Assembly: GCA_002269645.1 (NCBI GenBank)
Contig: NIVC01000210.1
Span: forward strand, 1 to 64,000
DNA: 64,000 bases
Direction of reading: 5' to 3'
Origin: Macrostomum lignano
Lineage: Eukaryota
The notes beneath the pieces were generated by a model. That model saw only the letters and a list, made by a program, of their open reading frames with translations, did not search any database and was not told the DNA's origin. Shown one piece after another: positions 10,395 to 60,545 of the stretch (positions within the stretch are counted from its first letter, which is position 1; every line of letters begins with the position of its first letter). The position numbers and the translations under genes were made by a program.

Positions 10395-10662
10395 AGTAGT
10401 ATAGAAAAAGACGCTTCTAGATCAGACCTTATTTTAATGGCCGTTTGTAAGGTCTTAAGAGGGGGGACGCGAGGGGGGTGTTAGGGAGTGTTTGGAAGTG
10501 TTGGGAAGTGATTTTTATTGTTAGGGGTGATTATGGGTGATTAGATGTGTTAAGGGTGTTTAGATGTGTTTTTTTATTTACCCCCCGTGTCCCCCCTCTA
10601 GACCCTTAAAACGGTCATTAAAAAAGTGCTCTGGGTCTAGAAGCGTCTTTTTATATACTACT
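10395..10662. repeat. Polinton terminal region with an internal inverted copy of the terminus
   Basis: 10395 AGTAGTATAGAAAAGACGCTTCTAGA...GAGGGGGGACGCG versus reverse complement of the end AGTAGTATATAAAAAGACGCTTCTAGA...GAGGGGGGACACG. Confidence 0.85.
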
Positions 10663-12100
10663 ACGCTAGCAAAGTCGGATTGCAGCTTCGTAATCTCATG
10701 AGCTGCTGGCGCAGCCGCTGCCACCGCTGCCGCATCTTCATATTTGGCAGAGTCAGCAGCTGGCCTCAGCTTCTTTGAGGCCGCCACAGCAGCCTTACTA
10801 TCGCCGTATTCTTGAGCAGTTTTCAAAGCATCGGTATGAGCAGTTATATCGGCCTCTGAGAATTTCGGAGCTAACTCCGATTCAACAAGTTTACAAAGGT
10901 TTTCTAACTGCTGAAGCCGTTCGCCGTAAAACTCGTTCCAATCGGACAGAAGTTTTGCTTTCGTCTTCGCTAACCTTGCCGCCTTGCTTGCGGCTGCCTT
11001 CAGTGACTCAAGCTTGGCCTAACCAAAATGAAAGAGAAAATAGTTGTTGAAGTTTAGCTTCAGGACGTATCTATTCATGTGCAGAATGATTACGTAAATA
11101 ACTACCTATTTTTTAGCATATGTCAAACGTAGATTATATTCATCATTCGTCGGAAATTTACTACGAGAAATACAAAACTGATTGATTGTCGTTCCGCTAC
11201 GAAACGAGTAAAAACGGAGCAGAGGCTAAAGCCCACCCACCAAGCCACCAACATACGCACGCAGAGCCAAGCACCCCCTACCCAGCGCGGACAAGAGAGA
11301 GAGAGAACGTACGCAAAGCGACACAAGGCGTGGCAGAGGAGAGGGGTTTAAATTTGGATATTGACTAGTCAAGACCAATCACAAACCAACACATATATGT
11401 TTAAAGATCCTCGGCTAGCACCATTCTGACTAACATTTGTTTTAACGAAAGCTGCTTTCACATTGGAATTATACTTGGAGTACTGGAAAAAAAACAGCCA
11501 AACTTAATAATGTAAAACATGTTTCCAGATTAACTGGTTGTGAGGCACTGAGAAAATTTATTATTTATTATTCTTTGATTCTTTGATTCTTTTCTATGTC
11601 AGAATCAATTAAAATCACGCGAGACTATGCAGAATTTGAAATGTTGCGAAACAAGCTTTACCTGAAATTTACGTTGATCGTCGCTAAAATGTAAAGCGCA
11701 AAGATTCCGATCGCAGTGCTCGCAGAAGCCCATCGAAGGCTTCCCGCATGGTCTTTGAGCATCATTTTCCAAGGCTTCACATAGCAGTTTCTGTCTTTTT
11801 GTTTGACTTGTGACATCTTGTGGCGTAGCCTTAGCCACTTCAACCAGGGTGCGCAGATGGGAATTTTCAACCGGTCTTCGTCGCAAGTCCTCGAAGCACA
11901 GAGGGCATTTCGCACCACCGGATCCTGCCTCTTTTTTGACACTTTCGTAGCAGGCCAGGCACAGTGAATGGTGATTCGAGCACGCATAGTGTGGGTTATT
12001 AAAGTAATCGAGACACACCGGACAGGTAACATCGTTTATGTCGATTATAGAATTTCGTCTTCCAGCTAAAAGATACGAGCGTATAATGTATGATTATCAA

Positions 12101-12162
12101 GAGGTCACGCTTCACACACAGCTGCCATAGCGGTAAGGCAGTTGTGTGTGAAGCGTTACCTC
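12101..12162 (+). other. 26-bp-stem hairpin of pre-miRNA size within intron 1 of TRIM-like copy 1
   Basis: GAGGTCACGCTTCACACACAGCTGCC / 10-nt loop / GGCAGTTGTGTGTGAAGCGTTACCTC. Confidence 0.45.
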
Positions 12163-12459
12163 TCGATAGTGGAATTGTGTCTATTTTCGTCCAAAAACCA
12201 ATTCAAAACGGCTAGGACACAACTTCCCAGACGGGAATTGTTCACTAAGCGATTCTAGGGATTTGTGTCATAGGCATTTTCCACTTGGTGCAAGCCAAGT
12301 GATGGCCATAGACTAAACGTCTGGAACAAAAAGTTAAGCGGAACAGTCTGAAATTACCATAGACGAAACATGTTAAATGAAGTTGTGGTCTTATAAGCTG
12401 GAACTCTGCAGCAGAGGATAACATGTTCCTGTTTCCTCTGTTTGCCCTAACCTCTATTC

Positions 12460-12816
12460 ATGCGACTCATACGAATGATAAATTGGTCGAATTTGCCGAT
12501 TGAAAGCATTGACAGCTTGAATGGAAATGAGCTCAACTTTCTCAGCGACTTGAGTATGGGGGGACGTGACGAGGCGGATGACGAAGAGTTGATGGAGTTC
12601 ATCCGATTCATTGAATGCGATAACGATGATGCTCTGCCACCACTGCCAAGCAAAGAAGAGGCTTGCTCCGAGGATCCCATGCGGAACAAAACATGCAATT
12701 CGGCCGATGTGAGTGTAACGTCTAAAGACATTTCTTATATAAATAAGACATTTCTTATTATTTTACTTTTCTTACATGTATACAATCTGTTTATTCAGCT
12801 TTGTTGTATTGAATAA
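12460..12816 (+). CDS. Orphan acidic ORF or exon inside the intron, similar to ORF 61861-62106
   Basis: MINWSNLPIESIDSLNGNELNFLSD aligns with MLNYANLPDQLISGLSTEKLHWVSS; possible donor GTGAGT near 12710. Confidence 0.35.
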   Translation: MRLIRMINWSNLPIESIDSLNGNELNFLSDLSMGGRDEADDEELMEFIRFIECDNDDALPPLPSKEEACSEDPMRNKTCNSADVSVTSKDISYINKTFLIILLFLHVYNLFIQLCCIE

Positions 12817-13818
12817 AAAATATCCTCGCAAACGCATTGATACAGGAATATCAGATTGCTCATCTGCAAATGGGTATATCCAAATATAACCCGTTGGGAA
12901 TATTCAAAGATGGGGGCGGTTTGACCATAGACTATTCGCAGATAAGCAATCTGTTGTATTCCTGTTTCGATGCCTGAAAGGCGTGCAAAAATTTACTTAG
13001 TTCACAATTTCCGTCGACGCAATCGTTTGTGGCCCAAACGAAACTAGACACAATAAGACTGGCTAAAGTCAACTACAGCCAATAAATTTGCGTAAATTTT
13101 ATGATCACAAAATAATTACGCACAAAAACTGTGCGTAAAACTCAGTAACTTACCTCCGCTTGAAGAGCTCATTGCAGTGACAAGTTAGCTTATCGCGAGT
13201 TATCAGCTTTTGGGTAAAACACTCCGAAAAAACTTATTCGCCCACTGCGCCCACATTAAAGTATATACCGAAGTATCATGAAGTATATCCTTGGCCTATA
13301 TCCGACATTAAAACCTCGCGCAGCTCACAGCTCGCAAAAGCTCATACAAAATCTATTTTTAGCACAAGCAACTCCTCCCTTGGCAAGCAAAGCGAAACAT
13401 AGAATTCTGGCTTAATTTTAGCACAATCACATTGAAGCATCTTTCCAGTATTTTTTTGTATTATTTGCAGGCTCATTTTTGCTATAATTTCTTTTTGAGA
13501 AAGTCAACATTGAGTTGCTTTTTGGGTTTAGTCGACGAAATAATGAAGAGTAGCCATGCAGCATTCGCATTGATGCAAGTCAAACTGAAAATAAAAAGGG
13601 TCACTAGTACACCATTTTTCGTTCAATTCCAATCCAAGTCAGTAGTAGAGGATAACACAACTCTGCCGCAGGGAAAGCCATGGGAATTCCGTAGACTCCT
13701 ATGAGAGTACATAGGCGCATGTGTTTACATAGGAGATATTTGTATATAAGCCACAAAATTGTTCTCATAAAAAAGAATTTTTTAAAATTCTCGCTCCGTT
13801 ACATCGTAATAACTAATA

Positions 13819-14583
13819 ATGGTCGATATTGGAGAAGGCTATAAACTCCAAGTGCAAGAGTACGAAGGAGTACAGTTTATTGCGATTCGGAAATTTTATC
13901 GACATGGCAGCACAGCAAGTTTGAAACCTGGCGTTCCCGGATTTAACCTCAACATCCGACAATGGGAGAAGTTGAAAGAACTGAAGCGAACTCTCGTGAA
14001 GGCGGCCCTGGGCGAGCAACAGAGGGTCATCAAACTCGGTTTTGATAAGTTCGTTGAGGTAAAGAACGGCATCATCTGGCTAAGACGGCTTCCGGAAGAT
14101 TGTTGCGAAGAATTTTTGAAGCGAAACACTGTGGCGTTGGCACCAGCTCTGTGGCGGAAACTGTGGGAGCAGGCTGCATGGATCGACGAGCAGCTATCTG
14201 CCCCACTCCAAATGTCCGATGTGTATGAGCTGGAGTCGGGATCTTCCTCCGACAACATCGAAAATGAAGACGCGGAAGAGACCAAGCCGGTAGTGAAGAT
14301 GGAGGACTTGGAGGATGCTGCGCCTGCTGCTGCTGGCGATGTGGCTGGCATGCCATCCAATCTGCAAATCGACACAGCGTTTGCCACTTCAACGCCTCTG
14401 CAACTGAGCAAGCCTGCAGCTGGAGCGATTCCTCGGCAGGACACTGATCTGCAAGAGGACCCAGTCTGGTACCAGTTCCGAGCTCAAGCAGCCGCCGCTG
14501 AGAACGCCAGGAAACGCGAGCAGCCACCGTTCGCTCTGCGCAGATTGGTTGCCATGAAGCTGCCCAGGCCGTGCTTCGACTGA
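13819..14583 (+). CDS. Tandem PC4-like ssDNA-binding domain protein with low-complexity tail
   Basis: IGEGYKLQVQEYEGVQFIAIRKFY...PGVPGFNLNIRQWEKL fits the PC4 pattern; a second degenerate copy LGFDKFVEVKNG...LAPALWRKL follows. Confidence 0.75.
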   Translation: MVDIGEGYKLQVQEYEGVQFIAIRKFYRHGSTASLKPGVPGFNLNIRQWEKLKELKRTLVKAALGEQQRVIKLGFDKFVEVKNGIIWLRRLPEDCCEEFLKRNTVALAPALWRKLWEQAAWIDEQLSAPLQMSDVYELESGSSSDNIENEDAEETKPVVKMEDLEDAAPAAAGDVAGMPSNLQIDTAFATSTPLQLSKPAAGAIPRQDTDLQEDPVWYQFRAQAAAAENARKREQPPFALRRLVAMKLPRPCFD

Positions 14584-14743
14584 TTGCTGACCCTCTGACA
14601 TTGAGACAAACTCTGTGCTTTTTTTATCCAGACCTGCTTTCCATCTCTTTGTTTGAAAAAAATGCTTGTTTTCACATGCGCTATGCAATTTTCAATGTCT
14701 TAAGAAAAAACGAAAAATAAAATATGTTTCTTTGTTTCTGAAA

Positions 14744-15811
14744 ATGGAAAAAATTCATTTCAACCCAAATCAGCCTGCGAGCTGTTGCAGTTTTTCAAAA
14801 CTGCAACATGAACTGCGAAAAAGAGGCGAGCATATTGGAGTCAAGAGCATTGAGCAGTGTCTAAGTCAGCAGCCAGTACACACTCTGCATAAGCCAGCTA
14901 GAGTACGATTTCCAAGGGCGCCAATAATAGTGAGGGCCATTGATGATCAGTGGGAGATGGATGTGGTGAAAATGATTCCGTTTGCAAAGTATAATCGCGG
15001 GCATAAATACATTCTCACCTGCATTGATGTTTTATCTAAATTTGCAATGGCCCGAGCACTGAAGTCTAAAAGCGCGGCAGAAGTGAAATCTGCGTTTGAG
15101 AGCATGCTGAAGAGCTCAAAGCGGCAGCCGCGCACTGTCCGCACAGATCAGGGAAAGGAGTTTGTCAACGCAATTTTTCGCCAGTTCTGCATAGACCGGG
15201 GGATTCTGGCGTTTTCAACTAGCAGTGAGCACAAAGCAGCCATCATTTAAAGATGGAATCGAACTTTAAAAAGCAAGATGTGGCGTTACTTTACTCACAA
15301 CAGCACTCTACAATGGCTTGAAGTGCTGCCTAAACTGGTCAAGTCCTATAACAATACTTTCCACAGAAGCATCAAGACTACATCAATGAATGTCAGCAAA
15401 GCAAACGAGACTGAAGTGTGGATGAACCTTTATGATGGGAAAGCGATTGAGACAGTTGAGAAACTGAGAAAACCGAAGTTCTGTGAAAACCAATCAGTGC
15501 AGATTTCCAATGCACCCAGACTCTTCAGGAAGGGATACAAGGCGAACTGGAGCGAGGAGGTGTACACCATAGTGTTTAGGGCACCAAAGCATTATCCCTA
15601 CATGTACAGGATTCGAGACATGAAGGGGGAAGACATTAGAGGCCTCTTCCACGAGCATGAGCTGCAAGTTGTTCCGGACTCGCAGCGGCTGTATGTAATC
15701 GAGAAGGTTCTGAAGACTGAGAAGCGGAAGGGTAAGATCCGATATCTCGTCAAGTGGGCCGGCCACAAGTCCACTGACTGGGTGGATGAGAAGGACTTGA
15801 GAAAAGTGTAA
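14744..15811 (+). pseudogene. Polinton-type retroviral-like integrase with C-terminal chromodomain; one in-frame stop
   Basis: HTLHKP, DQWEMD, TDQGKEF, AII*RWNRTL (TAA at 15248-15250), KGYKANWSEE and chromodomain IEKVLK...YLVKWAG...WV. Confidence 0.93.
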
Positions 15812-15841
15812 GATACCGACATTGTGCAGCTATTCCCAACT

Positions 15842-16216
15842 ATGAGAAGCATAATCATTTGTAGCGAAAATGCTGAAGGTACTCCTAGTGACATTCATTT
15901 TCAACTGCCTTCACCTATTTACTTAGATCGAAATGTGGACTATGAGGCAGGTCTGGCTGAAATCCATCTGCCTGCTGCATGGTTCAATGTTGACGAGCCT
16001 TACTGCTTCACTGTCTCAGATGGAAGAGAGCATGAGACCCTGGTTCTTCAACCCGGACGCTTTGCTAGAGTGGAGGAACTGGTTGAGTGTGTTAATAAAA
16101 ACATAGCCGCTATGTTTTCAGCTTTGCTATGTTTACAGTCAGCCACCCAATGTCCAATGGTTTCATCAGCGCTTCCAGGTATTGAGCCCTTGTTGAATTC
16201 CCGCACGCTCCGCTAA
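15842..16216 (+). pseudogene. Truncated Polinton minor capsid (penton-like) protein N-terminus
   Basis: SDIHFQLPSPIYL...YEAGLAEIHLPAAWFNV matches the N-terminal pattern of Polinton minor capsid proteins; the ORF ends after about 125 aa. Confidence 0.7.
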
Positions 16217-16957
16217 ATTCTTTTGAATACGCCGCCAACTTTACCCCGCCCAGTCGAGGGTGGCAATAAAACTGATAACTGCTGAGCACTCTCTCCTTTC
16301 AGCAACAAAGCCACCGCCGCCAGCTCCCAGACAGCGGGAGAGAGAGGCTTGGCTACCACTATTTTTGTTTACAGAAATTTGTTATTACCGATAAAATTAT
16401 ATAATAAAGTATTAGTATAATACTGAATACAATAAAATATCGCTGATATTTGCCAATCGTTCAACACAATTTCTACAGATTCCCCTAGCTCGCCTCTGTG
16501 CATACTTGCGGATTCCCCCATGAGGCGCCTATGTACTCTCATTAGGAGTCTACGGAATTCCCATGGCTTTGCCTGCGGCAGAGTTGAGCTATGCAAACAC
16601 ATAGGCGCCTTCTGATCCGGGCCCACGGAATTTCCGTGGCTTTCCCTGCGGCAGAGTTGTGTTATCCTCTATTACTCAAGTCATATTCTCAATTTATAAA
16701 AAACAGACATTTAGTTTCGCAGTTCTGTATTAATCTTACCAAACCAACATTCATACTAGATGAACCGAAACTCAGTTTAAAAAAATCGTTTAAACTTAGA
16801 CACTCAACGAAAGTGGTTTAATTATGTCCATGGAAGGGCTTGATGATTCATGAATTTCTTCCATCGATTTGCCGGGTTTATATTCGAATAAGAAAAGTAA
16901 CATTACATTTTGACTATGGAATAAAAACTGTTTCCTAAAACTCTGTTTTTTAACTTC

Positions 16958-23187: not shown

Positions 23188-24988
23188 TCAACTTGATTGA
23201 TCCGAATGTTTGCTTATCCTGCTCCACTGAAATAAGAAAGATAGTGTTATAAAAGAAACTGCCAGTGGTAGGCCTGTAAAATTATTGCATTCAATCATTT
23301 CATCGTTATGCTTACGTTTGAAAGTTTTATCCTTGATGTCACCCTGAGCAAAGTGCTCGCCGAGATTTATCACAGTATTGCAGAAGGGCACTTTTAATGG
23401 TGAACTATCTGAGCAGCACAGCCGAATCGCTACATGCAGCTCTTTGTCGGGCAATTTCTGAAAGCTGTAGTTAAATGTTGCCATGTAGTTGAACTGGATT
23501 TCTAGTTCATCGCCACTGCGCTTGCACTTGTTAGAATTCGACAATTCTACTTTTGCTGAGTAGTTCCAGTTCCAGTCAGAGTTCATTTTAAATCCGACGG
23601 AACAGTTCGTTGCATCCGAGGGGAGAATTTCCTTCTGAAACTTTACGCTGACGATATTCAGATTGCAAGTTTTTGTTCGCGCAGCTCGAATGTAGAGCTG
23701 CATCATTTCGTCAGTGACGCTAGCAAACTCGGATTGCAGCCGTGTCGTTTCATGAGCTGCTGGCACAGCCGCTGCCACCGCTGCCGCATCTTCATATTTG
23801 GCAGAGTCAGCAGCCGGCCCCAGCTTCTTTGAGGCCGCTGCAGCAGCTTGAATATCGTCGAAGTCTAGAGCCGTTTTCAACGCGTCGATTTGACCAGTTA
23901 TATCGGCCTCTGAGAATTTCTGAGCTAATTCCGATTCAACAAATTTACTAAGGCTTTCCAACTGCTTTAACCGTTTGCCGTAAAAGTCTTTCCAATCGGA
24001 CAGAAGTTTTGCTTTCGTCTTCGCTAACACTGCCGCCTTGCTTGCGGCTGCCATCAGCGACTCGAACTCGGCCTAAATGAGAATTTTAGTTCAAGTTTGA
24101 ATTCTAGCTTCGGGACGCATCATTTTATGTGTAGAATATTTAAATAGCCGTTTAAAGGCTTTTGTCACTCCTCCGGTAGTAACAAAAAAAATATTGATTT
24201 TTTATGCAACGATTAAGAAAGCTTATTAATAAAAAAATAATAATAAACTAAATTTTGTTTTAACAAACTGCTTTAATATCGGAGTAATATCGGAGTAACG
24301 TCGTACTTGGAGTACTAGAAAAACAGTCAGTACTAGAACAGTTAATTTGAAACGTGTTTATAGATTTACGTGTGAGACGCTGAGAAATCCATAAACGAGC
24401 GTACTAAAAATGGTTTGTCGGTATCTAGCTCTAGGTATGCGATCGATTTCGAAGCAAACTTACTTGAAATAGAAGTCGATCGTCGCTATAATGTAAACCG
24501 CAAAGATTCCGATCGCAGTGCTCGCAGAAGCGCATCGAAGGTTTCCCGCATGGTCGCTGTTGAGCACCATTTTCTAAGGCTTCACATGGAGGCTTCTGGC
24601 TGTTTGTTTGTCCTGTCAAATCCTTTGGCGCAGCCTTGGCCGCCGCAACCAGGATGCGCAGCTGGGAATTCTCAACAGGTCTTCGCAAGTTCTCCTTGCA
24701 CAGCGGGCATTTCGCCTCCCTGGGTCCTGAGCTGCTAACAAAACCTTTGTAGCAGGCCAGGCACAGTGAATGGTGATTCGCGCACACATAGTGGGGGTTA
24801 TTAAAGAAGTCGAGACACACCGGACAGGTAACATCGTTCCTGTCGATTTTGGAATTTTGACTGCCAGCTGAAAAACAGATAATAAGATAAGCTAAAGTTA
24901 ATCCCACAGAGAATTAATATTATGCTGCAAGCTAAACTGCATTTAAAATTTTGAAACTCCGTAACTTACCTCCGCCTGAACCGCTCAT
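23188..24988 (-). CDS. TRIM-like copy 2: RING + B-box-like + coiled coil + C2-like domain, apparently intact (about 435 aa)
   Basis: Exons 24970-24988, 24464-24867 and 23188-24072 join in frame via GT-AG. RING CPVC...CANHHSLCLAC...CPLC; B-box-like CGKPSMRFCEHCDRNLCGLH; tail FNYMATFNYSFQKLPDKELHVAI...FCNTVINL is C2-like. Confidence 0.82.
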
Positions 24989-25347
24989 TGCAGTGTCAGT
25001 TAACTCAGCTCTTAGGTAAAACACTTCGAAAGAACTGCTTTGCCGGCTCTATATGTATTATTCTAGCCGCATGTACATCAAACCTCACACAGCCTACACA
25101 CAATTTATTTTTAACGCAAGCACTCTTCTCCTTGGGCAAGCTTTTCATTTTAAACACAATTGCATTGAGGCATCATTCAGACGTGCTTTTCTGCGCATGC
25201 AAATTTGTGCTATTATGCTTTCTTTTTGAGTAAGAATGGCCTTTCACATTGATGCGAGACAAACTGAAAATGAAATGGGTTATTGGCATCTAGTAGCTGG
25301 CTAAAAATAAACCTGTGGTCTGAAAGAACACTAGAAAATTCAAGAAA

Positions 25348-25930: not shown

Positions 25931-26700
25931 GTATCGACAGTATCGACAGTATCGACAGTACCGACAGTATGGACAGTACCGACAGTATCGACAGTACCGA
26001 CAGTACCGACAGTACCGACAGTACCGACAGTACCGACAGTATCGACAGTACCGACAGTACCGACAGTACCGACAGTATCGACAGTACCGACAGTACCGAC
26101 AGTACCGACAGTATCGACAGTACCGACAGTACCGACAGTACCGACAGTATCGACAGTACCGACAGTACCGACAGTACCGACAGTATCGACAGTACCGACA
26201 GTACCGACAGTATCGACAGTACCGACAGTACCGACAGTACCGACAGTACCGACAGTACCGACAGTACCGACAGTATCGACAGCACCGACAGTATCGACAG
26301 TACCGACAGTACCGACAGTATCGACAGTATCGACAGTATCGACAGTACCGACAGTATCGACAGTATCGACAGTACCGACAGTATCGACAGTACCGACAGT
26401 ACCGACAGTACCGACAGTATCGACAGTATCGACAGTACCGACAGTACCGACAGTATCGACAGTACCGACAGTACCGACAGTACCGACAGTACCGACAGTA
26501 CCGACAGTATCGACAGTACCGACAGTATCGACAGTACCGACAGTACCGACAGTATCGACAGTATCGACAGTACCGACAGTACCGACAGTACCGACAGTAT
26601 CGACAGTACCGACAGTACCGACAGTATCGACAGTATCGACAGTACCGACAGTACCGACAGTATCGACAGTATCGACAGTACTGACAGTACCGACAGTATC
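25931..26700. repeat. 9-bp tandem array (CGACAGTAY)n, about 85 units, mixed T/C variants
   Basis: Direct reading; both AGTATCGAC and AGTACCGAC units are interleaved. Confidence 0.97.
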
Positions 26701-28182: not shown

Positions 28183-28874
28183 CGACAGTATCGACAGTAT
28201 CGACAGTATCGACAGTATCGACAGTATCGACAGTATCGACAGTATCGACAGTATCGACAGTATCGATAGTATCGACAGTATCGACAGTATCGACAGTATC
28301 GACAGTATCGACAGTATCGACAGTATCGACAGTATCGACAGTATCGACAGTATCGACAGTATCGACAGTATCGACAGTATCGACAGTATCGACAGTATCG
28401 ACAGTATCGACAGTATCGACAGTATCGACAGTATCGACAGTATCGACAGTATCGACAGTATCGACAGTATCGATAGTATCGACAGTATCGACAGTACCGA
28501 CAGTATCGACAGTATCGACAGTATCGACAGTATCGACAGTATCGACAGTATCGACAGTATCGACAGTATCGACAGTATCGACAGTATCGACAGTATCGAC
28601 AGTATCGACAGTATCGACAGTATCGACAGTATCGACAGTATCGACAGTATCGATAGTATCGACAGTATCGACAATATCGACAGTATCGACAGTATCGATA
28701 GTATCGACAGTATCGACAGTATCGACAATACCGACAGTACCGACAGTATCGACAGTATCGACAGTACCGACAGTACCGACAGTATCGACAGTATCGACAG
28801 TACCGACAGTACCGACAGTATCGACAGTATCGACAGTATCGACAGTAACGACAGTACCGCCAGTACCGACAGTA
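28183..28874. repeat. 9-bp tandem array (CGACAGTAT)n, about 77 units, mostly the T variant
   Basis: Direct reading; same unit and orientation as 25931-26700. Confidence 0.97.
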
Positions 28875-28970
28875 TAGATACTCAACAGTAGATACTCAAC
28901 AGTATTATAGTTTTAGTTCATTAGTCAGAGTACTTCAATTCAGTGTGCAAGTCGATGCAGTGGAAGTCCT

Positions 28971-32797: not shown

Positions 32798-33969
32798 CAC
32801 CAAGCACCAAGCACCAAGGGGCTTTAGCACCAAGGGGCTTTAGCACCAAGAGGCTTTAGCACCAAGGGGCTTTAGCACCAAGGGGCTTTAGCACCAAGAG
32901 GCTTTAGCACCAAGGGGCTTTAGCACCAAGGGGCTTTAGCACCAAGAGGCTTTAGCACCAAGGGGCTTTAGCACCAAGGGGCTTTAGCACCAAGGGGCTT
33001 TAGCACCAAGGGGCTTTAGCACCAAGGGGCTTTAGCACCAAGGGGCTTTAGCACCAAGGGGCTTTAGCACCAAGGGGCTTTAGCACCAAGGGGCTTTAGC
33101 ACCAAGAGGCTTTAGCACCAAGGGGCTTTAGCACCAAGGGGCTTTAGCACCAAGGGGCTTTAGCACCAAGGGGCTTTAGCACCAAGGGGCTTTAGCACCA
33201 AGGGGCTTTAGCACCAAGGGGCTTTAGCACCAAGGGGCTTTAGCACCAAGGGGCTTTAGCACCAAGGGGCTTTAGCACCAAGGGGCTTTAGCACCAAGGG
33301 GCTTTAGCACCAAGGGGCTTTAGCACCAAGGGGCTTTAGCACCAAGGGGCTTTAGCACCAAGGGGCTTTAGCACCAAGGGGCTTTAGCACCAAGGGGCTT
33401 TAGCACCAAGGGGCTTTAGCACCAAGGGGCTTTAGCACCAAGGGGCTTTAGCACCAAGGGGCTTTAGCACCAAGGGGCTTTAGCACCAAGGGGCTTTAGC
33501 ACCAAGGGGCTTTAGCACCAAGGGGCTTTAGCACCAAGGGGCTTTAGCACCAAGGGGCTTTAGCACCAAGGGGCTTTAGCACCAAGGGGCTTTAGCACCA
33601 AGGGGCTTTAGCACCAAGGGGCTTTAGCACCAAGGGGCTTTAGCACCAAGGGGCTTTAGCACCAAGGGGCTTTAGCACCAAGGGGCTTTAGCACCAAGGG
33701 GCTTTAGCACCAAGGGGCTTTAGCACCAAGGGGCTTTAGCACCAAGGGGCTTTAGCACCAAGGGGCTTTAGCACCAAGGGGCTTTAGCACCAAGGGGCTT
33801 TAGCACCAAGGGGCTTTAGCACCAAGGGGCTTTAGCACCAAGGGGCTTTAGCACCAAGGGGCTTGAGCACCAAGGGGCTTTAGCACCAAGGGGCTTTAGC
33901 ACCAAGGGGCTTTAGCACCAAGGGGCTTTAGCACCAAGGGGCTTTAGCACCAAGGGGCTTTAGCACCAA
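32798..33969. repeat. 16-bp tandem array (GCACCAAGGGGCTTTA)n, about 72 units
   Basis: Direct reading; near-homogeneous, with a few AAGAGGC variants. Confidence 0.98.
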
Positions 33970-46561: not shown

Positions 46562-47200
46562 TTATTCTGGAATGCCACCGCAAGTTCTAGTTGCAGTGTC
46601 GATTACGGTGTCCAGCTTTGATTTACAAGCTTCAATTTCCTTTTTCTGCTCACTGGTTTGAGGCAACCCGAAAGCTTTCGATTCCAGCTTGGGCGCTTCA
46701 GCAGTAGCAGCTTTCAGCCGGTCTGCGATGGCTTTGGCTTCCTGCATTTGGAAAGATTGAAGGGATTTTTGCAGGCCCTCCGTCTCAGCCCCTCGGGAAG
46801 ACCCAGCAGCTGCCTGCTCCAGCCTCTGCTCTGTGGTTCTCAGCAGCTTCTCCAGGTGCTCTTTTTTCTTACCGATAAATTCGATAAGATTTTTTGATTT
46901 GAGCTTTCCAAGGCTGCAGTGTAGCGCTGACTTGTGCGCATTCCTTTGCGTCCTTCTCCACTGTGTTCAACAGGTTCAGGCATTCAGTCTAAAATATAAG
47001 CGTTCCGTCTTATTAATTTGAATTCGAATAAATCTTAAATACTTCAGGTTCCATTACCTGAAACTTCGATCGATGATCGCTGAAGTGCACATCACAAAGA
47101 TTCTTGTCGCAGTGACCGCACTTGACGAGGATCGAGTAGGAGCATTGGCTTTCGCCTTCGCCTGCGCTAAAATAAGTGCCTGCGGCGCTAAAGTCAGTGC
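46562..47200 (-). pseudogene. TRIM-like copy 4: RING deleted, B-box remnant + frameshifted coiled-coil exon
   Basis: QCSYSILVKCGHCDKNLCDVHFSDHRSKFQ then GT...TTTTAG then TECLNLLNTVEKDAKEC; one extra A in a poly-A run shifts the frame. Confidence 0.8.
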
Positions 47201-47539
47201 TAAAGTTTGATGGGGCTTGGAGTTCTTAGTTCAAAAACCAGTTTCACGCGAGCTCGCATAGATTTATTTTTATGTTTTAAAACTCCCTCCCCAGATGCAG
47301 TGAATTCTAAGCAAAAAAGGAAATAAAAAGCGCACTTAAAGCATTTCACCACCTTTTAACTTCATTGGCAAGAACATATTGGATTTTCACTTATTTGCAG
47401 ACAGTTTCAGATAATAAAGCCTGCAGGAGTATCTTAGCTACCTTTGGGAAGTGACGTTGTGCAAGCTGATGATACCGTTTTGTCTTTGTTGTCGCGGTGA
47501 CCAGATGGTTTACTTGCCAGAAAGCTTTAGTGCGAAGCA

Positions 47540-49700: not shown

Positions 49701-51962
49701 AAAGAACAATTTCAATCACCGCGTCGCAGCAAAACAGCCAGATATTCTGGACCACATACAACATTTATGACGGAGTCGGAATGTAAATGCGATGGATGCC
49801 GTAGATCCCGTAGATTAGGTTTTAGTTCCCCAGTGCCACCAATGTTTGAACTACTTTTATTTTTAGAAGCTTTTGAAAGCTTTCTTTTTAGAAGAAATTC
49901 GAAATAATTTGAACTGAACAAATTCATGGCATGTAGAGGAGCACCAGGCTCCTCAGTTTCTAAACTGAAGTGGAATTTTCAATCCAAGTAGCTAGTTTTT
50001 ATAACCATTGTAACTGCACCGAATTACGAAGCATCTACGAGCTATGCATATGTAACCATTATGGCCCAACTTTCAAGTTAAATGCGCTGGCTGCATAAAT
50101 GCAACAATAGTTTTATACTACTTACAAGAATCCGCGAAAGTAGTACCAACTATTTGTCTTTATCTGTCTCCTTTCTGTCCAATACAAAGCAGATATTTCA
50201 CAATCCTTCGTAACAGATATTTTTAGACATGGCAGAAAGAAAATGTGTGCTACGAATGCTTTTTATCAACACTCCTTACTATTTTGCCTATCTACGAGTA
50301 TTAGTATAGAAGATTAGTAGATTTGGATGGATAAAAATTCAAGCCTGTAGATCCGCAAGGCCACCTCTCCGGCGCTTTTGCGTTTCTAAAAAGCGTAGCC
50401 ACAAGATGGACAGACAAAGAGACAAAGTGTTTGCCAATTTCTACCGGCAGGAGTGCTCTTACAAGCAAAATTCTCTGGATTCAATCAGTCTCTACATGTA
50501 TTTGAAACGATGCTCGACAAGGCTGGAGGCATTGAACACATTGTTGCTAAACTTGTCTTTTTCTAAGACTGGTTTTATTTAGTCTGGCTGACATGAAATA
50601 ATTGATCGTTTTCGTTGAACTTAACCTGTAATGGAGTAACCCTGAAGGTAAAGATGCAGAGGGAATATGAGGAGGTGTACGGACAGATGCAGCTCGAATA
50701 TATTGACTAACCCCACCGCTTAACTTTAGGCTTCGAGAGGAGCCCACCCTAAAGTTGAGAAATTAGCTAAGAGAAATACAATAGCTAGCTAAACCAAACA
50801 CAAGCACAACCAAAGCCAGTGCTCCACTGTAATTTGTACTCGAAAAGTTGAGAATGTGATAAATATCTGTTTCAGGCTGTAAGATAACAAATTGGCTCTT
50901 CAAGGCTAAGATTCCGAAATGAAAATTATAAAAGAAAGATGTAAAATAAGGTACCTCACAGATAAAATAAGTATTTCATCACACTTCTGAGCTGCAAACT
51001 CGTCTCTGCTGTACATACATGCACATGAACTCTGAATGCATAAAATAGTTTGAAGCGACAATAGCAATACTGGACGCAGAATTGGAATTCTAAACAGGGC
51101 TGCACCACTTTCTCAGGCATTTTATTTACCGCAGCCTCTGCTTCGCACTACGTAAAGCTTTCTAGCAAATAACCCATCTGGTCTTCGCGACAACTTGTGC
51201 CGCAGAAAAAAACGGTATCATCAGCTTACACAACGTCACTTCCCAAAGGTAGCTAAGACACTCCTGCAGGCTGTATTATCTGAAATTTTGTCTGCAATTA
51301 AGTGAAAGTACAGTATGTTCTTGCCAATGAAGTTAAAAGGTGGTGAAATGCTTTTAGTGCGCTTTTTATTTCATTTATTTCATAGAATTCACTGCATCTG
51401 TGAGGGGAGTTTTAAAGATTAAAATATTTTTTATGTAGCTCGTATGCGGGCCAGCGTGAAACTGATTTCGACCTGAGAACTCCAAGCCCCATTATACTTT
51501 TGCACCAGATTAACCTCTACAGCAACTCCAACTTCAACCTTAGATTAAACCGATTGATGCGTGACGGTTTTTTCTTTCTATGAGTATCCCCCAATTAGTT
51601 ATTTTTCACCTTTACTGAGACATGCTTTCATTGCTGACCCCACTAAGTTTTTCTGATCAATCCTGGTACCTTCCGGTAGATGTCTATCACTTGGTTGCTT
51701 GGCGGCGAGGTCAAGAATACCTCAAGACCATTTATATCGCGTGCCACGCACGTACTTTGTGCCACCAAACTCAGAGAACACAGTGCTGCCAGCGTTTTTA
51801 TCAACTGTCTTGGTAATTGCTTCTCTTGCTTCTCCAGACCACTCAGTAATCTTCATCTTTTTCTTTTATCGTTTCAACATTCCAATAGTGTATGAATATT
51901 TTATAAATTGTTAAGAGGGACATAAAATTGCTGTTTATCAGCTAAATCATTAAGTTTTAGAT

Positions 51963-52986
51963 ATGAGCTCAATAGAATACGAAGACCTGCTGTGCCCAGT
52001 GTGCAAAGACATCTTTACCGATCCGTGCTTCGTATGCCCGAACCATCACATCCTGTGCCGCGAATGCCACAAAGGCCTTTTGGAGACGTCCCCTTACACT
52101 GCAAAGTGTCCGGAATGCAGAGAAAAGCTGTCCACACCGAAGCAGGACGCTATCAGAGCCAAGCTCGTCCAGACTTTCACCACCAGCGCCACCTGCCAGG
52201 TGCGCGAAGACGAAACCCAGTGCTGCAACTCAGTCTTTGTCAAGTGCGGTCACTGCAACCTGAATGTTTGCGATCTTCACTTCAGTGAGCATCGACTGAA
52301 GTTTAAGGTAATGTAAGCTGAAGTATTTATTAGGAAGGATTCAAAAGCAAACTAACAGAACGGAACGCTTGCCTTCCCAGACTGAATGCGAGAACCTGTT
52401 AGAATCTGTGGAAAATGACGCGACTGAATGCGAACGAGTCAGCGCTACACTGCAGCCTTGGAAAGCTCAGATCGCCAGTCTTATCGAATTTATCGATATA
52501 GAAAAAGAGCGCCTCGAAGAGCTGCTGAGAGCCACAGAGCAGAGGCTGGAGCAGGCAGCTGCCGGGTCCTCCCGCCGAGCTGAGGCAGACGGTCTGCGAG
52601 CCTCCATTCGATCTGGCCAACTGCAGCAAGCCAAAGCCATCGCAGATCAACTGCAAGCTGCTGCTACTGAAGCGCCAAAGCTGGACTCGCAAGATTTCGG
52701 GTTGCCTCCAACCGATGAGCAGAAAAATGAGATTGAAGCTGGTAAAGCAAAGCTGGAAACCATAATCAGGACTGCTGCAGAAATTTGCGGTGCTTTTAGC
52801 GGTAGCAATGAGTTTCATGTTCCTTCTTATGATTCTTCGTCCTTGAGCCCTGCAGAACTCTCGAGCCCAATCTATGCTGAACACCTCTTGCAAAGTGAGG
52901 TAGTCTATAACCCAATGGCCCTTAATACAGATCCCCATGAATTCGATGCGGATGACTATTCTGCTTTTTTAGTGAGACTAGATTAA
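51963..52986 (+). CDS. TRIM-like copy 6: RING + B-box-like + coiled coil + acidic tail, intact (about 316 aa)
   Basis: Exons 51963-52307 and 52381-52986 joined by a 73-nt phase-0 GT-AG intron. Confidence 0.85.
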
Positions 52987-56096: not shown

Positions 56097-57650
56097 GATG
56101 GGTTCGGCCTTTTTAAGCCTACAGCTTCAGGCCTCAGAACTCAGAAATGAATCACTTAGAACTCTGGCCTCTCACTCCTGTCAGATGGTCAGCCCCATGG
56201 TAGCTAGATTGTGGGCGAGCAGCAAGGTCCTATAGCTAAGAGAAGACAGCGAGAGACAAGCAGGGAGAATTTGAAAGGTAGAAATTAGCTAATCCGCAGA
56301 TTAACTAACTCGCTGCCAGTCCGTGCGCCCCGGCTCACCAAACCGGAGCTATCGAAATCGGACTTCCGACTAGAGGGGCACTGCACTTACCTGCCATCTA
56401 GTGTCTTTTAGCTGTCTAAATCTCGAAGTCATAGTCGAATAGAAGGGACGCTGCTGGGACTAAGATCGCATTGCCATGCAGGGACAGAGAGGACTTCTGC
56501 AGGGGGTTCTTGCGCTGGCGAGCCTTTATACACTACTGAAACTGAAAATACTATTTCATTACCAAATTCCCAGAAGTAAATGTACAAGTACACGTAATTG
56601 CACGCTTTTTGGCACTAAATGTGTTAACACGTCGGCAGATAGCGATGATGTAGATGTATTGTCGCCTTTGGAGATCTTCAGACAAATATTTAACTTGTCC
56701 GAGCCGCCCGAGACTGCGCGATAGCACCAGTCTGGCTCTGAATTTGCATGCTCAACATAATGATTTCTTAGATCGACTGATTGACTGGGAACTGTGCCGC
56801 TTCCGGTTCACTGTGACCCCTGCCTCTAGATTTAGACGCTCATCTCAGCTGGCATTGCGAAAAAGAAAGAAAACGCTAAGTCTAACTTCCAGATTTGACT
56901 TTCTCACTTAATCCGCAATCCTAAACACCTTAGATTGGGTCAGAGCTAATGGCTAATTTTAATATTAATTGACACTTCTGCCTCGAGATTGGCACGCAAA
57001 ATAGCAAGTAAGCAAAATTGCAAATCCTATCAGACTACCTAGAAAGGGGTCAGACAAAGGGCGCACCCAGTTAAGCAGGTCAAGAAAGCCTCTCACCAAA
57101 ACAATCAGAGGACCTAACTGCCGGTAGCCAAAGAATCCACGGAGACCGAGCCGCCCGGACGAAATGCTGCTGCTGATCTTAACTGACGAGTGCCGCCGCT
57201 ACTCTTCGCTTGCCGGTTGTTGTTGCTGCTCTTAGTTCGCGGTCGGGAAGTACTGACGATGCTTCTCAGGGGGAGTTTAGCTGCAGAAGCCGAAACTGCC
57301 GGGGGGAGGGAGACCAGAAGTCGACAGGGATCAGACTGGCAGGACCGGCCAAGGCCAAGGTCAGGGCGTGCCAGAAAGTTGTCGAGCGCGGGCCGAGTTG
57401 CCGCCTTTTATAGCTCTCGCGCGGCCGATTTGTTATAATGCACGCCGAATTTTCTGATTGGCTGAGAGCATTTGTTAAAATAGGCGCCGAATTTTCTGAT
57501 TGGTCGAGCCGGAGGCAGTCAGGTCGACTCTGATTAGCTGAGCTCAAGACCCCAACACCTACCCCACCAGGTGGCCTTCGGACCCCAGGGAAGTTGACAG
57601 GTGCGGTCATAAATCATGGGCAAAACGCAATAAAAGCCCCTTGTCTAGAC
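56097..57650 (-). repeat. Long promoter-bearing repeat, copy A (LTR-like, non-coding)
   Basis: Reverse complement aligns with 59050-60545; repeated CCAATCAGAAAATTCGGCG and CTATAAAA on the minus strand. Confidence 0.75.
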
Positions 57651-59049: not shown

Positions 59050-60545
59050 GTCATAAATCATTTTGTTGCGATTTTTATTGATTTATGGCCGCATCTGTCA
59101 TATATTTACGACCCCGAGGGAACTGATAGGATCTCTTGGTCACGTGACTTTGGGTGGCAGCAAGCTCAGCCGATCAGAAAATTCGACGTGCGTTGTAACA
59201 AATCGGCTCAGCCAATCAGAATCGAGGTGTTCCATTATAACAAATTGCGGTCCAGTTGGTGGCTATTTAAACCGGCGTTTTTGGACGGCGCGGACCTCAA
59301 CTGGCTCGGAACTTCCTGCTACTTGCTCGGGCCCAGTACACGACCGTCGTTTCTTGATCCCCGGATTGCGACTTCCCCCATCATCATCAAGGATGAGTCC
59401 CCCTGGTCGTCAGCAGTAAACATCAAAGTTAAGAGCATCACCTGCTAGCTATCAGCGAAGATTGGGACATCAGCATCATCCCGGGTCTACAGCTGCGAAG
59501 CACTAAGCCGATTCGGTCGCTGTGGATTTCCTGGTCTCCGCCTGTTGAGTTTCTGATTGGTTGGGTGAGAGGCTACCTAGACTTGCTTGATTGGGTGATT
59601 CCTCATCTGTCCCCTGTTTCAGTAGCTGGATTAGGCGCACACTTTTGCTCATTTTGTTCAGTAGTGCTGTTACTGAGGCAGAAATCATTCAATAATACTG
59701 ATAGTAGTCTGAAACTCCAATTCAATCTGAAGTGTGAGGAGATCTAAGGAGAAGGTTAGATCTAACAGTAATTTTTATCGGTTTTATTTCTTTGTTCGCC
59801 GATGGCTCAGATGAGTAGCTAAGCTAGTAGGCGCCGGTCACAGTGGACCAATGGCAAGGCAGTTCTCAATCGATCAATCTATCAAATCAGTTAGCGAAAC
59901 TGCCAGTAGTGCAGAATCGGCGCCAGAGATGTACTTTGTGCACTCTAGGTTCGCCAAGCGGCTCGGGTAATGAATCATGCGGTCTCCGAGGTTCGAGTTA
60001 GCCTATCATCAGCACTAGGAGAGGCTGGTTGGCGCGTTGAAGGCCAAAAGTACAATTCTTCGTATTTAGCAATGTAATAGTACATGTAGCTACCCCATAG
60101 TCTCGCCACTGCAAGAATCCCCTGCACAAGTCCCCTCTGTACCTGCATGGCCAATGCGATCAAGTCCCAGCAGTGTCTCTTAACATCGGCTATGACTTCG
60201 AGATTGACAGCAAAAAGACACTAGTTGGCAGGCAAGTGCAAAGCCCCTTCTAGTCGGAAGCCCGATTTCGAGAGTCCCGGTGTGGTGAGCCAGGACGTAC
60301 GGGCTGGTGGCAGCGAGTTAGTTGATCTGCGGATTAGCTAATTTCTACTTTCAAAATTCTCCCTGCTCGTCTCTCGCTGTCCCTCTCTTAGCTATAGGAC
60401 CTAGACTGCTCGCCACACGATCAAGCTACCATGGGGCTGACCATCTGACAGGAGTGGGGGGGGCAGGACTCTAATTGATTTATTTCTGAGACCTGAGGCC
60501 CAAAGGCTTCCCCACAAGGGAGCTGAAAGGCCGAAACCCATCCTA
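59050..60545 (+). repeat. Long promoter-bearing repeat, copy B (inverted relative to copy A)
   Basis: Shared blocks such as CACTCCTGTCAGATGGTCAGCCCCATGGTAGCT and GTAGAAATTAGCTAATCCGCAGAT in opposite orientation. Confidence 0.75.

Follow-up and report, generated by a model that had tools for sequence, protein, structure and literature searches.

Gene content and insertion site

The first 10,662 bases of the window (the whole stretch of DNA that was analysed, 64 kb) belong to a mobile element that, judged by its sequence, is a Polinton/Maverick. This assignment is based on the protein-primed family B polymerase (pPolB), on the end motif (AGT)2//(ACT)2, which is common at Maverick ends (PMC8097293), and on integration into a host gene; a 6-bp target-site duplication is likely, with a candidate on the right-hand side only. 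The element and the adjoining host sequence hold the following features:

1 to 5024, plus strand: remainder of the element, which runs past the left edge of the window; protease fragment, fibre-like pieces and small ORFs.
5065 to 8707, minus strand: protein-primed family B polymerase that includes an endonuclease VII domain, its gene broken over three frames; called from motifs, PF02945 (E = 4.7e-7) and homologs.
8777 to 10343, minus strand: two ORFs adjoining the end, one of which (8777-9763) has adenovirus protein X-like GGxLP segments (Adeno_PX, E = 0.01, below the Pfam cut-off).
10663 to 10668, plus strand: first six host bases, ACGCTA, the candidate right-hand target-site duplication, common to the paralog (23717-23722).
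10663 to 11087, minus strand: interrupted host coding stretch, downstream of a RING-finger exon (11644-12071); 84% identical to 23717-24137, with RING matches.

The polymerase motifs were read in the translations of 5065-7919. Among 8000 candidates scored, 5789 were homologs (the best at 54%), named DNA-directed DNA polymerase and in some cases carrying PF03175, and the enzyme is 34% identical to that of a Polinton contig from IMG/VR (L016); the piece in the window itself had no Pfam polymerase match. The endonuclease VII domain also occurs in distant polymerase homologs. One homolog of the protein X-like ORF carries PF05829. Towards the left edge, 176-394 is probably a cysteine-protease fragment, on the sole basis of a pairwise match (E = 0.001) to an ORF of the L016 Polinton, and the fibre-like gene pieces at 476-2369 contain an F5/8 type C domain and a 57-bp repeat in 7.5 copies. 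The scanned ORFs of 1-10662, a range beyond which the element extends, gave no match to an rve integrase, and no HUH/Rep nicking enzyme was found among the ORFs scanned of this element, which is incomplete in the window. No ATPase or capsid gene was recognised in the part of the element within the window, NCBIfam had no match for the element's own ORFs, and single-protein scans of IMG/VR returned no relatives for either the polymerase piece or the protein X-like ORF. A second element of the window carries an rve gene at 14657-15811.

The right boundary is set by an empty-site paralog. The match between 23717-24137 and the interrupted host stretch halts exactly at 10663, and since the reading frame is continuous in the paralog, the element has inserted into a duplicated host gene and ends at 10662, where ACTACT abuts the host junction exactly. 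The Polinton-type end with an (AGT)2 motif that the earlier note had proposed is supported. As the remaining host gene has no match in 1-10662, the left end lies outside the window and the element is longer than 10.6 kb. The duplicated host gene with its RING-finger exon occupies 10663-13601 and 23188-25280, in pieces that are 74-87% identical, and the Polinton interrupts one copy. 7TM and RING genes, together with animal homologs of the polymerase, suggest that the host is an animal. A 74-bp imperfect palindrome (12095-12168, 86%) adjoins the RING exon. Further to the right, the window contains tandem arrays at 25931-26698, 28183-28875 and 32810-33969, in which two related 9-mers recur 85 and 77 times and a 16-mer 72 times, and large dispersed inverted repeat pairs that are 80-96% complementary (46576-47481 / 51209-52792 and 56168-56461 / 60163-60461).

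Geometry and predicted folding of the nested inverted end

The last 268 bp of the element (10395-10662) begin with the letters AGTAGTAT and end with ATACTACT. This unit and the sequence just inside it are organised as follows:

10203 to 10354, no strand assigned: variable block of 152 bp with a perfect 30-bp inverted repeat (10212-10241 / 10280-10309), missing from some family copies.
10357 to 10384, plus strand: short GC-rich hairpin that lies 10 nt inward of the inner arm (-11.6 kcal/mol, z = -2.3, 5/200 shuffles as good; weak).
10395 to 10479, plus strand: inverted inner repeat of the last ~85 bp of the element, with AGTAGTAT at its start; 82% over 90 columns, tip 26/27.
10479 to 10580, plus strand: loop of 102 nt with zero C (A20 G35 T47), in G/T-rich tandem units of about 10 bp.
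10580 to 10662, minus strand: outer arm, the true right terminus, whose inward reading starts AGTAGTAT; recognised by the empty-site paralog, the fall in depth, other flanks in run X5 and the (AGT)2 motif.

A search against the window aligned 10389-10476 with 10581-10668 (82.2% complementary over 90 columns, E = 1e-17), and neither arms nor loop have a second copy elsewhere in the 64 kb. In a global alignment of 10395-10479 with the reverse complement of 10580-10662, 75/89 columns are identical, and the differences consist of 4 substitutions and 10 gap columns. The arms match at 26/27 positions in the tip and at 49/62 further in (Fisher p = 0.056, not significant). Three of the 4 substitutions give G-T wobbles on the plus strand, which has its 3' end at the terminus; the chance of 3/3 transitions favouring one strand is 1 in 8. 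The alignment, the predicted fold and the paralog agree with the earlier description of an outer ~85 bp, including AGTAGT, that recurs in inverted form about 270 bp inside: coordinates, arm length and spacing were correct.

An extra AGT (10392-10394) directly precedes the inner copy. The six letters before this copy, TAGAGT, agree at 5/6 positions with TAGCGT, the reverse complement of the host flank, an agreement due in part to this third AGT repeat. No direct repeat of 4-9 bp was found around the unit (left boundaries 10386-10397, right boundaries 10660-10669), and the inner copy, having no target-site duplication, is therefore part of the element's end and not a separate insertion.

The loop units (e.g. 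TTAGGGAGTG, TTTGGAAGTG and TTAGATGTG) lie in a C-free run of 110 nt, the longest of the window (the runner-up is 65 nt), and the period-10 match of the loop is 0.62 vs 0.36, equalled in 0/500 shuffles. The probability of such a run under independent bases (1e-7 to 1e-3) was not used as evidence, the loop being a tandem repeat, and the telomere-like TTAGGG, with two occurrences only, was given no weight. No G-quadruplex pattern with loops of up to 12 nt was found. Rfam models over 9700-11300 gave sub-threshold microRNA-model matches on the hairpin 10212-10309 only and none on the 268-bp unit, a bacterial promoter scan stayed at chance level, and a PDB sequence search had 0 matches.

Folded as single-stranded DNA, the unit has a predicted energy of -62.0 kcal/mol on the plus and -57.6 kcal/mol on the minus strand (z = -12.0 and -12.5, respectively; 0/200 shuffles as good), while the loop has a fold energy of 0.0, that is, no predicted structure, on both strands. 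The last nine bases of the unit pair with 10395-10403 at a predicted probability of 0.88-0.99. A fold from one end alone, as had been suggested, is thus predicted to be possible. With a perfect partner the end-to-end pairing would reach -345 kcal/mol for the whole unit and -108 kcal/mol for the outer arm, against -62 kcal/mol for the local fold; the end-to-end panhandle would therefore be far stronger at equilibrium, and the local fold would be a fast and transient form, or kinetic short cut. The hairpin 10357-10384 would sit on the template just ahead of the folded 3' end.

Occurrence of the nested end in public sequencing runs

The region 8700-10662 is present wholly or partly in 16/19 listed public runs (6 studies), and four of these 16, each from a different study, were compared (X2, X14, X5 and X10); the window itself may derive from one of them. 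In the comparison of contigs, the rows considered were 40 of the 331 substitutions, 15 of the 16 joints and 24 of the 226 loose ends. Contigs of all four runs cover the inner arm and the loop. In the bin 10440-10526, which comprises the distal half of the inner arm and the start of the loop, the summed contig depth, which is not a copy number, is 38,879 in X2, 1,304 in X14, 406 in X5 and 5.9 in X10, against 82-109, 0-9, 0-7 and 0, respectively, in unique host bins (11049-11222). Contigs that fit two places are few (13/1588 in X2, 2/377 in X14, 0/230 in X5 and 0/38 in X10), so that cross-mapping from the outer arm does not explain the depth of the inner arm. Depth falls past 10662, where X5 shows other flanks (6 contigs after 10662 and 4 after 10663). 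In X10, which carries a second species label, one contig joins the G-run of the inner arm to loop sequence; among the contigs listed, none spans the whole unit. The best-supported 12 of 30 indel rows include no indel inside 10395-10662, which makes the bulges between the arms unlike errors of this assembly.

Several copies deviate from the window. The joints 10433 to 10569 and 10434 to 10564 represent copies deleted inside the unit. An X14 joint from 10388 to 10570 marks a copy that differs at the inner arm and may lack this arm or carry a diverged one, and an X2 loose end after 10392 likewise marks a copy differing there; its letters resemble those before the inner tip, and it may reflect a longer spacer only. 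Loose ends after 10601 (3 contigs in X2 and 5 in X14) point to a subfamily with diverged arms, of two kinds when judged by eye, one nearer to the outer and one nearer to the inner arm. The variable block 10203-10354, of which no other copy occurs in the window, is skipped by joints from 10202 to 10355 in X2 and X14 and replaced by other sequence in X10. Loose ends before 10355 (X14) and 10183 (X5) could be the inner border of a left-end repeat and equally variants of this block. Unit-to-body depth ratios of 1.37, 1.26, 1.02 and 0.62 were discarded as a measure of terminal-repeat length and are silent on whether the left end has the unit.

The 268-bp unit forms the right end of a Polinton/Maverick that exists in multiple copies; its geometry, its terminus and, within the limits of contig data, its presence in many copies are observed. 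The nested inverted end is very probably a multi-copy family trait and not an artefact, as far as sequence and contigs allow.

Comparison with other Polinton ends

Eleven other ends of 7 elements were compared, namely those of the second Polinton of the window and of six of 102 fetched loci with a polymerase alignment. These loci came from alignment-based scans (22 viral loci and at least 80 metagenome loci, 80 of 543), with polymerases 29-54% identical. An inverted copy of its own tip was found in 0/11 of these ends, so that such a copy is evidently not required in Polintons. Direct repeats inside the end, duplications of 40-90 bp that exceed the shuffle maximum, occur in 4/11, the second Polinton of the window included. 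The end sequence of the unit recurs in none of the 102 loci, the best matches being 24-29 nt long with E values of 0.025 or worse. A motif screen for an AG-type start with its first 25 nt inverted within 800 bases, applied to 803 starts in 794,423 bases of these loci and the window, found the 10395-10662 unit only, and the exact 27-nt tip pattern had 0 matches in IMG/VR. As the relatives are distant, the nested end would be specific at least to a narrow clade.

Two candidates were rejected. The spaced pattern AGTAGTATA-N236-266-TATACTACT matched 27 times in IMG/VR, and 27/27 matches are attributed to chance, the arms not extending. A locus with an inverted score of 44 (null maximum 31; L040) excludes the tip from the repeat and may not be a Polinton end.

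The second Polinton (13641-16676) is internally deleted to 3,036 bp, is flanked by CAAGTC on both sides, and has the ends AGTAGTAG and AGTAATAG. Its ORFs encode a PC4-like protein, an rve and chromodomain integrase in two pieces, and one further product. At its right end, ~70-85 subterminal bases are duplicated in direct orientation, which shows that terminal segments of ~70-90 bp become duplicated in Polintons of this host. On the L016 contig, an inverted repeat with outward ACTACT...AGTAGT bounds lies between integrase and polymerase (4657-4840), and an ORF at 2740-4251 apparently fuses a protease to the integrase. Two further loci, L059 (4291-11474) and L037 (1237-3155), are Polinton derivatives with AGTAG ends, 6-bp duplications (CGTCGC and GCGCAT, respectively) and internal direct repeats within their terminal repeats.

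Relation to known terminal structures

Animal Polintons/Mavericks share with this element the (AGT)2//(ACT)2 motif, the protein-primed polymerase, host integration, a likely 6-bp duplication and the multi-copy family (PMC8097293, 10.1101/2023.08.22.554363). In the available parts of these descriptions, however, each end has one inverted repeat that pairs with the other end, whereas here a copy of the tip lies inside the same end. Supplementary tables aside, the open literature in its accessible parts yielded no description of a nested inverted tip in an animal Polinton, and the portions available of 10.1101/2023.08.22.554363, PMC11296320 and 10.64898/2026.10.13.758929 do not describe one.

The closest published case appears to be that of protist viruses. 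The virophages of Halocafeteria (Halocafeteria seosinensis) and one PLV subtype (subtype 4), likewise integrated Polinton-related viruses, have fold-backs at the tip beside the target-site duplication, in the form of 52-nt palindromes that occur preferentially without pPolB and for which hairpin priming has been proposed (10.64898/2026.07.28.741278). Those palindromes are near-perfect with a gap of at most 10 nt and go with a non-pPolB replicase; the present unit has imperfect 85-bp arms (82%), a gap of 104 nt, a second (AGT)2 tip and pPolB. With its gap limit of 10, the screen of that preprint would miss the 10395-10662 geometry. The claim in the earlier note that the structure goes beyond the two-ended TIR model was overstated, since hairpin-priming palindromes, though of other geometry and mostly without pPolB, had already been published for protist virophages and PLVs.

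For pPolB replicons in general, origins formed by two-ended panhandles are the standard model, for which direct evidence is said to be lacking (PMC11886824, PMC4046053). In adenovirus and PRD1 a displaced strand regains a duplex origin through inverted repeats, as it would here (PMC11886824); the natural panhandles described there join two ends, whereas here one end holds both arms. Casposons are also pPolB-type self-synthesising elements with fold-backs in their terminal repeats, but they are unrelated by descent, and the sections available describe no duplicate of the tip (PMC4046053). Bidnavirus ends reportedly form no hairpins (PMC4061559). In vaccinia, the flip-flop telomeres resemble the unit as imperfect terminal fold-backs with bulges, and the hairpin mismatches are functional, but the loops are short and two orientations exist (PMC8956199). 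Compared with these telomeres and with the ends of parvoviruses, the loop of the unit is long, none of the joints listed points to two orientations, and the scanned ORFs include no HUH endonuclease.

Parvovirus terminal hairpins are imperfect and bulged, with short loops and two orientations. Embedded-ITR copies in adenovirus are laboratory constructs or mutants and are not known as a fixed trait of a natural family, and they illustrate that an internal inverted copy can serve; work by Wang et al. from 1991 is said to concern end repair in adenovirus minichromosomes.

Possible origin and role of the nested end

The nested inverted end is real, very probably family-wide and absent from the 11 other ends examined, and a role of the kind proposed below is plausible. 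We tentatively favour the reading that the end was duplicated by template switching and was retained for the one-ended panhandle origin that forms when the displaced strand folds back. In the founder, a putative template switch would have copied the terminal ~85 bp once, in inverted orientation, into a G/T-rich subterminal repeat tract, and the family would have carried this copy ever since. Protein-primed strand-displacement synthesis from the far end would release a strand with the 3' end ...ATACTACT, which could pair with the inner copy 268 nt away and so immediately create a duplex origin of ~85 bp whose loop stays single-stranded. Such an origin would shield the 3' end, would allow the polymerase and terminal protein to re-initiate, and could template repair of the tip, and it would not need the distant partner end more than 10 kb off. 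In favour of this reading are the predicted fold, with its last nine bases paired and its loop unstructured, the full AGTAGTAT tip retained in the inner copy next to weaker matching further in, the wobble-making substitutions on the strand with the terminal 3' end, the high depth of inner arm and loop together with the X10 contig and the unit free of indel rows, and the standing of panhandle origins as the standard for pPolB replicons. Several points count against it: selection acting only at the outer tip would produce part of the contrast between tip and rest, the C-free loop may follow from tandem expansion of a C-free 10-mer, 10-bp phasing is more in keeping with protein binding to duplex DNA than with a loop, the ten gap columns between the arms suggest drift, copies exist that differ at the inner arm (the X14 joint and the X2 loose end), the nested copy is confined to this element among the ends compared, and the polymerase of this copy is broken.

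A bolder version, which we hold to be rather doubtful, is that each end of this family is a self-contained fold-back module that serves excision and re-initiation without the pairing of distant ends. A 268-nt hairpin would form on single strands, at a replication fork of the host or following strand displacement; a branch-cutting nuclease (the integrase or the endonuclease VII domain) could then cut at the foot of the stem, where the host-element junction would lie, and the freed end would act as a ready duplex origin. The arms would then co-evolve within each subfamily, of which the diverged arms after 10601 may be a faint hint.

Neutral hitch-hiking is possible and ranks close behind the one-ended origin: a one-off inverted duplication of the end in the founder would have been spread by transposition and would now be decaying, without a role. 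The differences between the arms, mostly gaps, the copies deleted inside the unit, and the common occurrence of end-proximal duplications of 40-90 bp, direct in 4/11 other ends, are what such a history predicts. It accounts less well for an inner tip that is nearly intact while the rest has drifted, for substitutions leaning to G-T on one strand, and for the presence of the structure in a run under a second species label, each of these points being weak alone. The inner copy and the 10-bp repeats might instead act as duplex DNA, without folding, by binding the integrase, the polymerase-terminal protein or a host factor, which we regard as unlikely. In the IR/DR ends of Tc1 elements, inner repeats, there not inverted, are extra binding sites, and the period-10 repeats of the loop, conservation that peaks at the tip and the G-run box, and the internal direct repeats of other Polinton ends fit a function of this sort; the complementarity, however, runs along the whole 85 bp and not through boxes only, and a wobble bias is meaningless on duplex DNA.

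The remaining readings are less probable still. Rolling-hairpin replication, in which the folded 3' end would be extended directly and a later nick, perhaps by the endonuclease VII domain, would resolve the product, appears improbable. The predicted fold does leave a paired 3' end beside a template, the endonuclease VII domain is encoded, imperfect stems are functional in vaccinia telomeres (PMC8956199), and the same model has been proposed for the protist virophage and PLV palindromes (10.64898/2026.07.28.741278). After resolution, however, roughly one copy in two should carry the unit inverted, and 0/15 listed joints (of 16) change strand, which leaves the hairpin-primed flip-flop replication of the earlier note unsupported, though on short contigs this is a weak argument; the element moreover retains the (AGT)2 motif and pPolB, and the endonuclease VII domain, being present in distant homologs, is not tied to the nested end. 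Very improbable is a 268-bp non-autonomous mini-Polinton that the unit is or yields, with the large element a composite using its outer end. The two arms do face each other like the ends of a mini-element, but no 4-9 bp direct repeat occurs at any unit boundary tried, there is no second copy of the unit in the window, the depth of the unit is just 0.6-1.4x that of the element body, and no loose ends before 10392-10395 are found among 24 of 226 listed. The free mini-elements of ~270 bp once envisaged thus found no support in flanking duplications, loose ends or excess depth. That the structure is a local rearrangement after insertion or an assembly artefact, unique to this copy, is largely refuted and now hardly credible. 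The agreement of TAGAGT with TAGCGT might speak for it, but the third AGT accounts for part of this agreement, the arms at 82% fall short of the near-identity expected of a local copy, and inner arm and loop occur at high depth in runs from three studies; with contigs of all four runs covering them, uniqueness to this copy, named beforehand as the outcome that would speak against the structure, is very probably not the case.

Implications for Polinton replication

The exit of Polintons from the chromosome and the start of their replication are still described by a model, according to which a racket or panhandle forms by pairing of the two ends. This model could be tested directly on sequence in a family whose single end can fold back by itself: should single-stranded intermediates matter, the two arms would be expected to co-vary from copy to copy within the family. 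If the inner copy is neutral, it is merely another example of the duplication-prone ends of Polintons. If the nested end functions as we tentatively propose, it would link the hairpin-ended virophages of protists to the protein-primed Polintons of animals.
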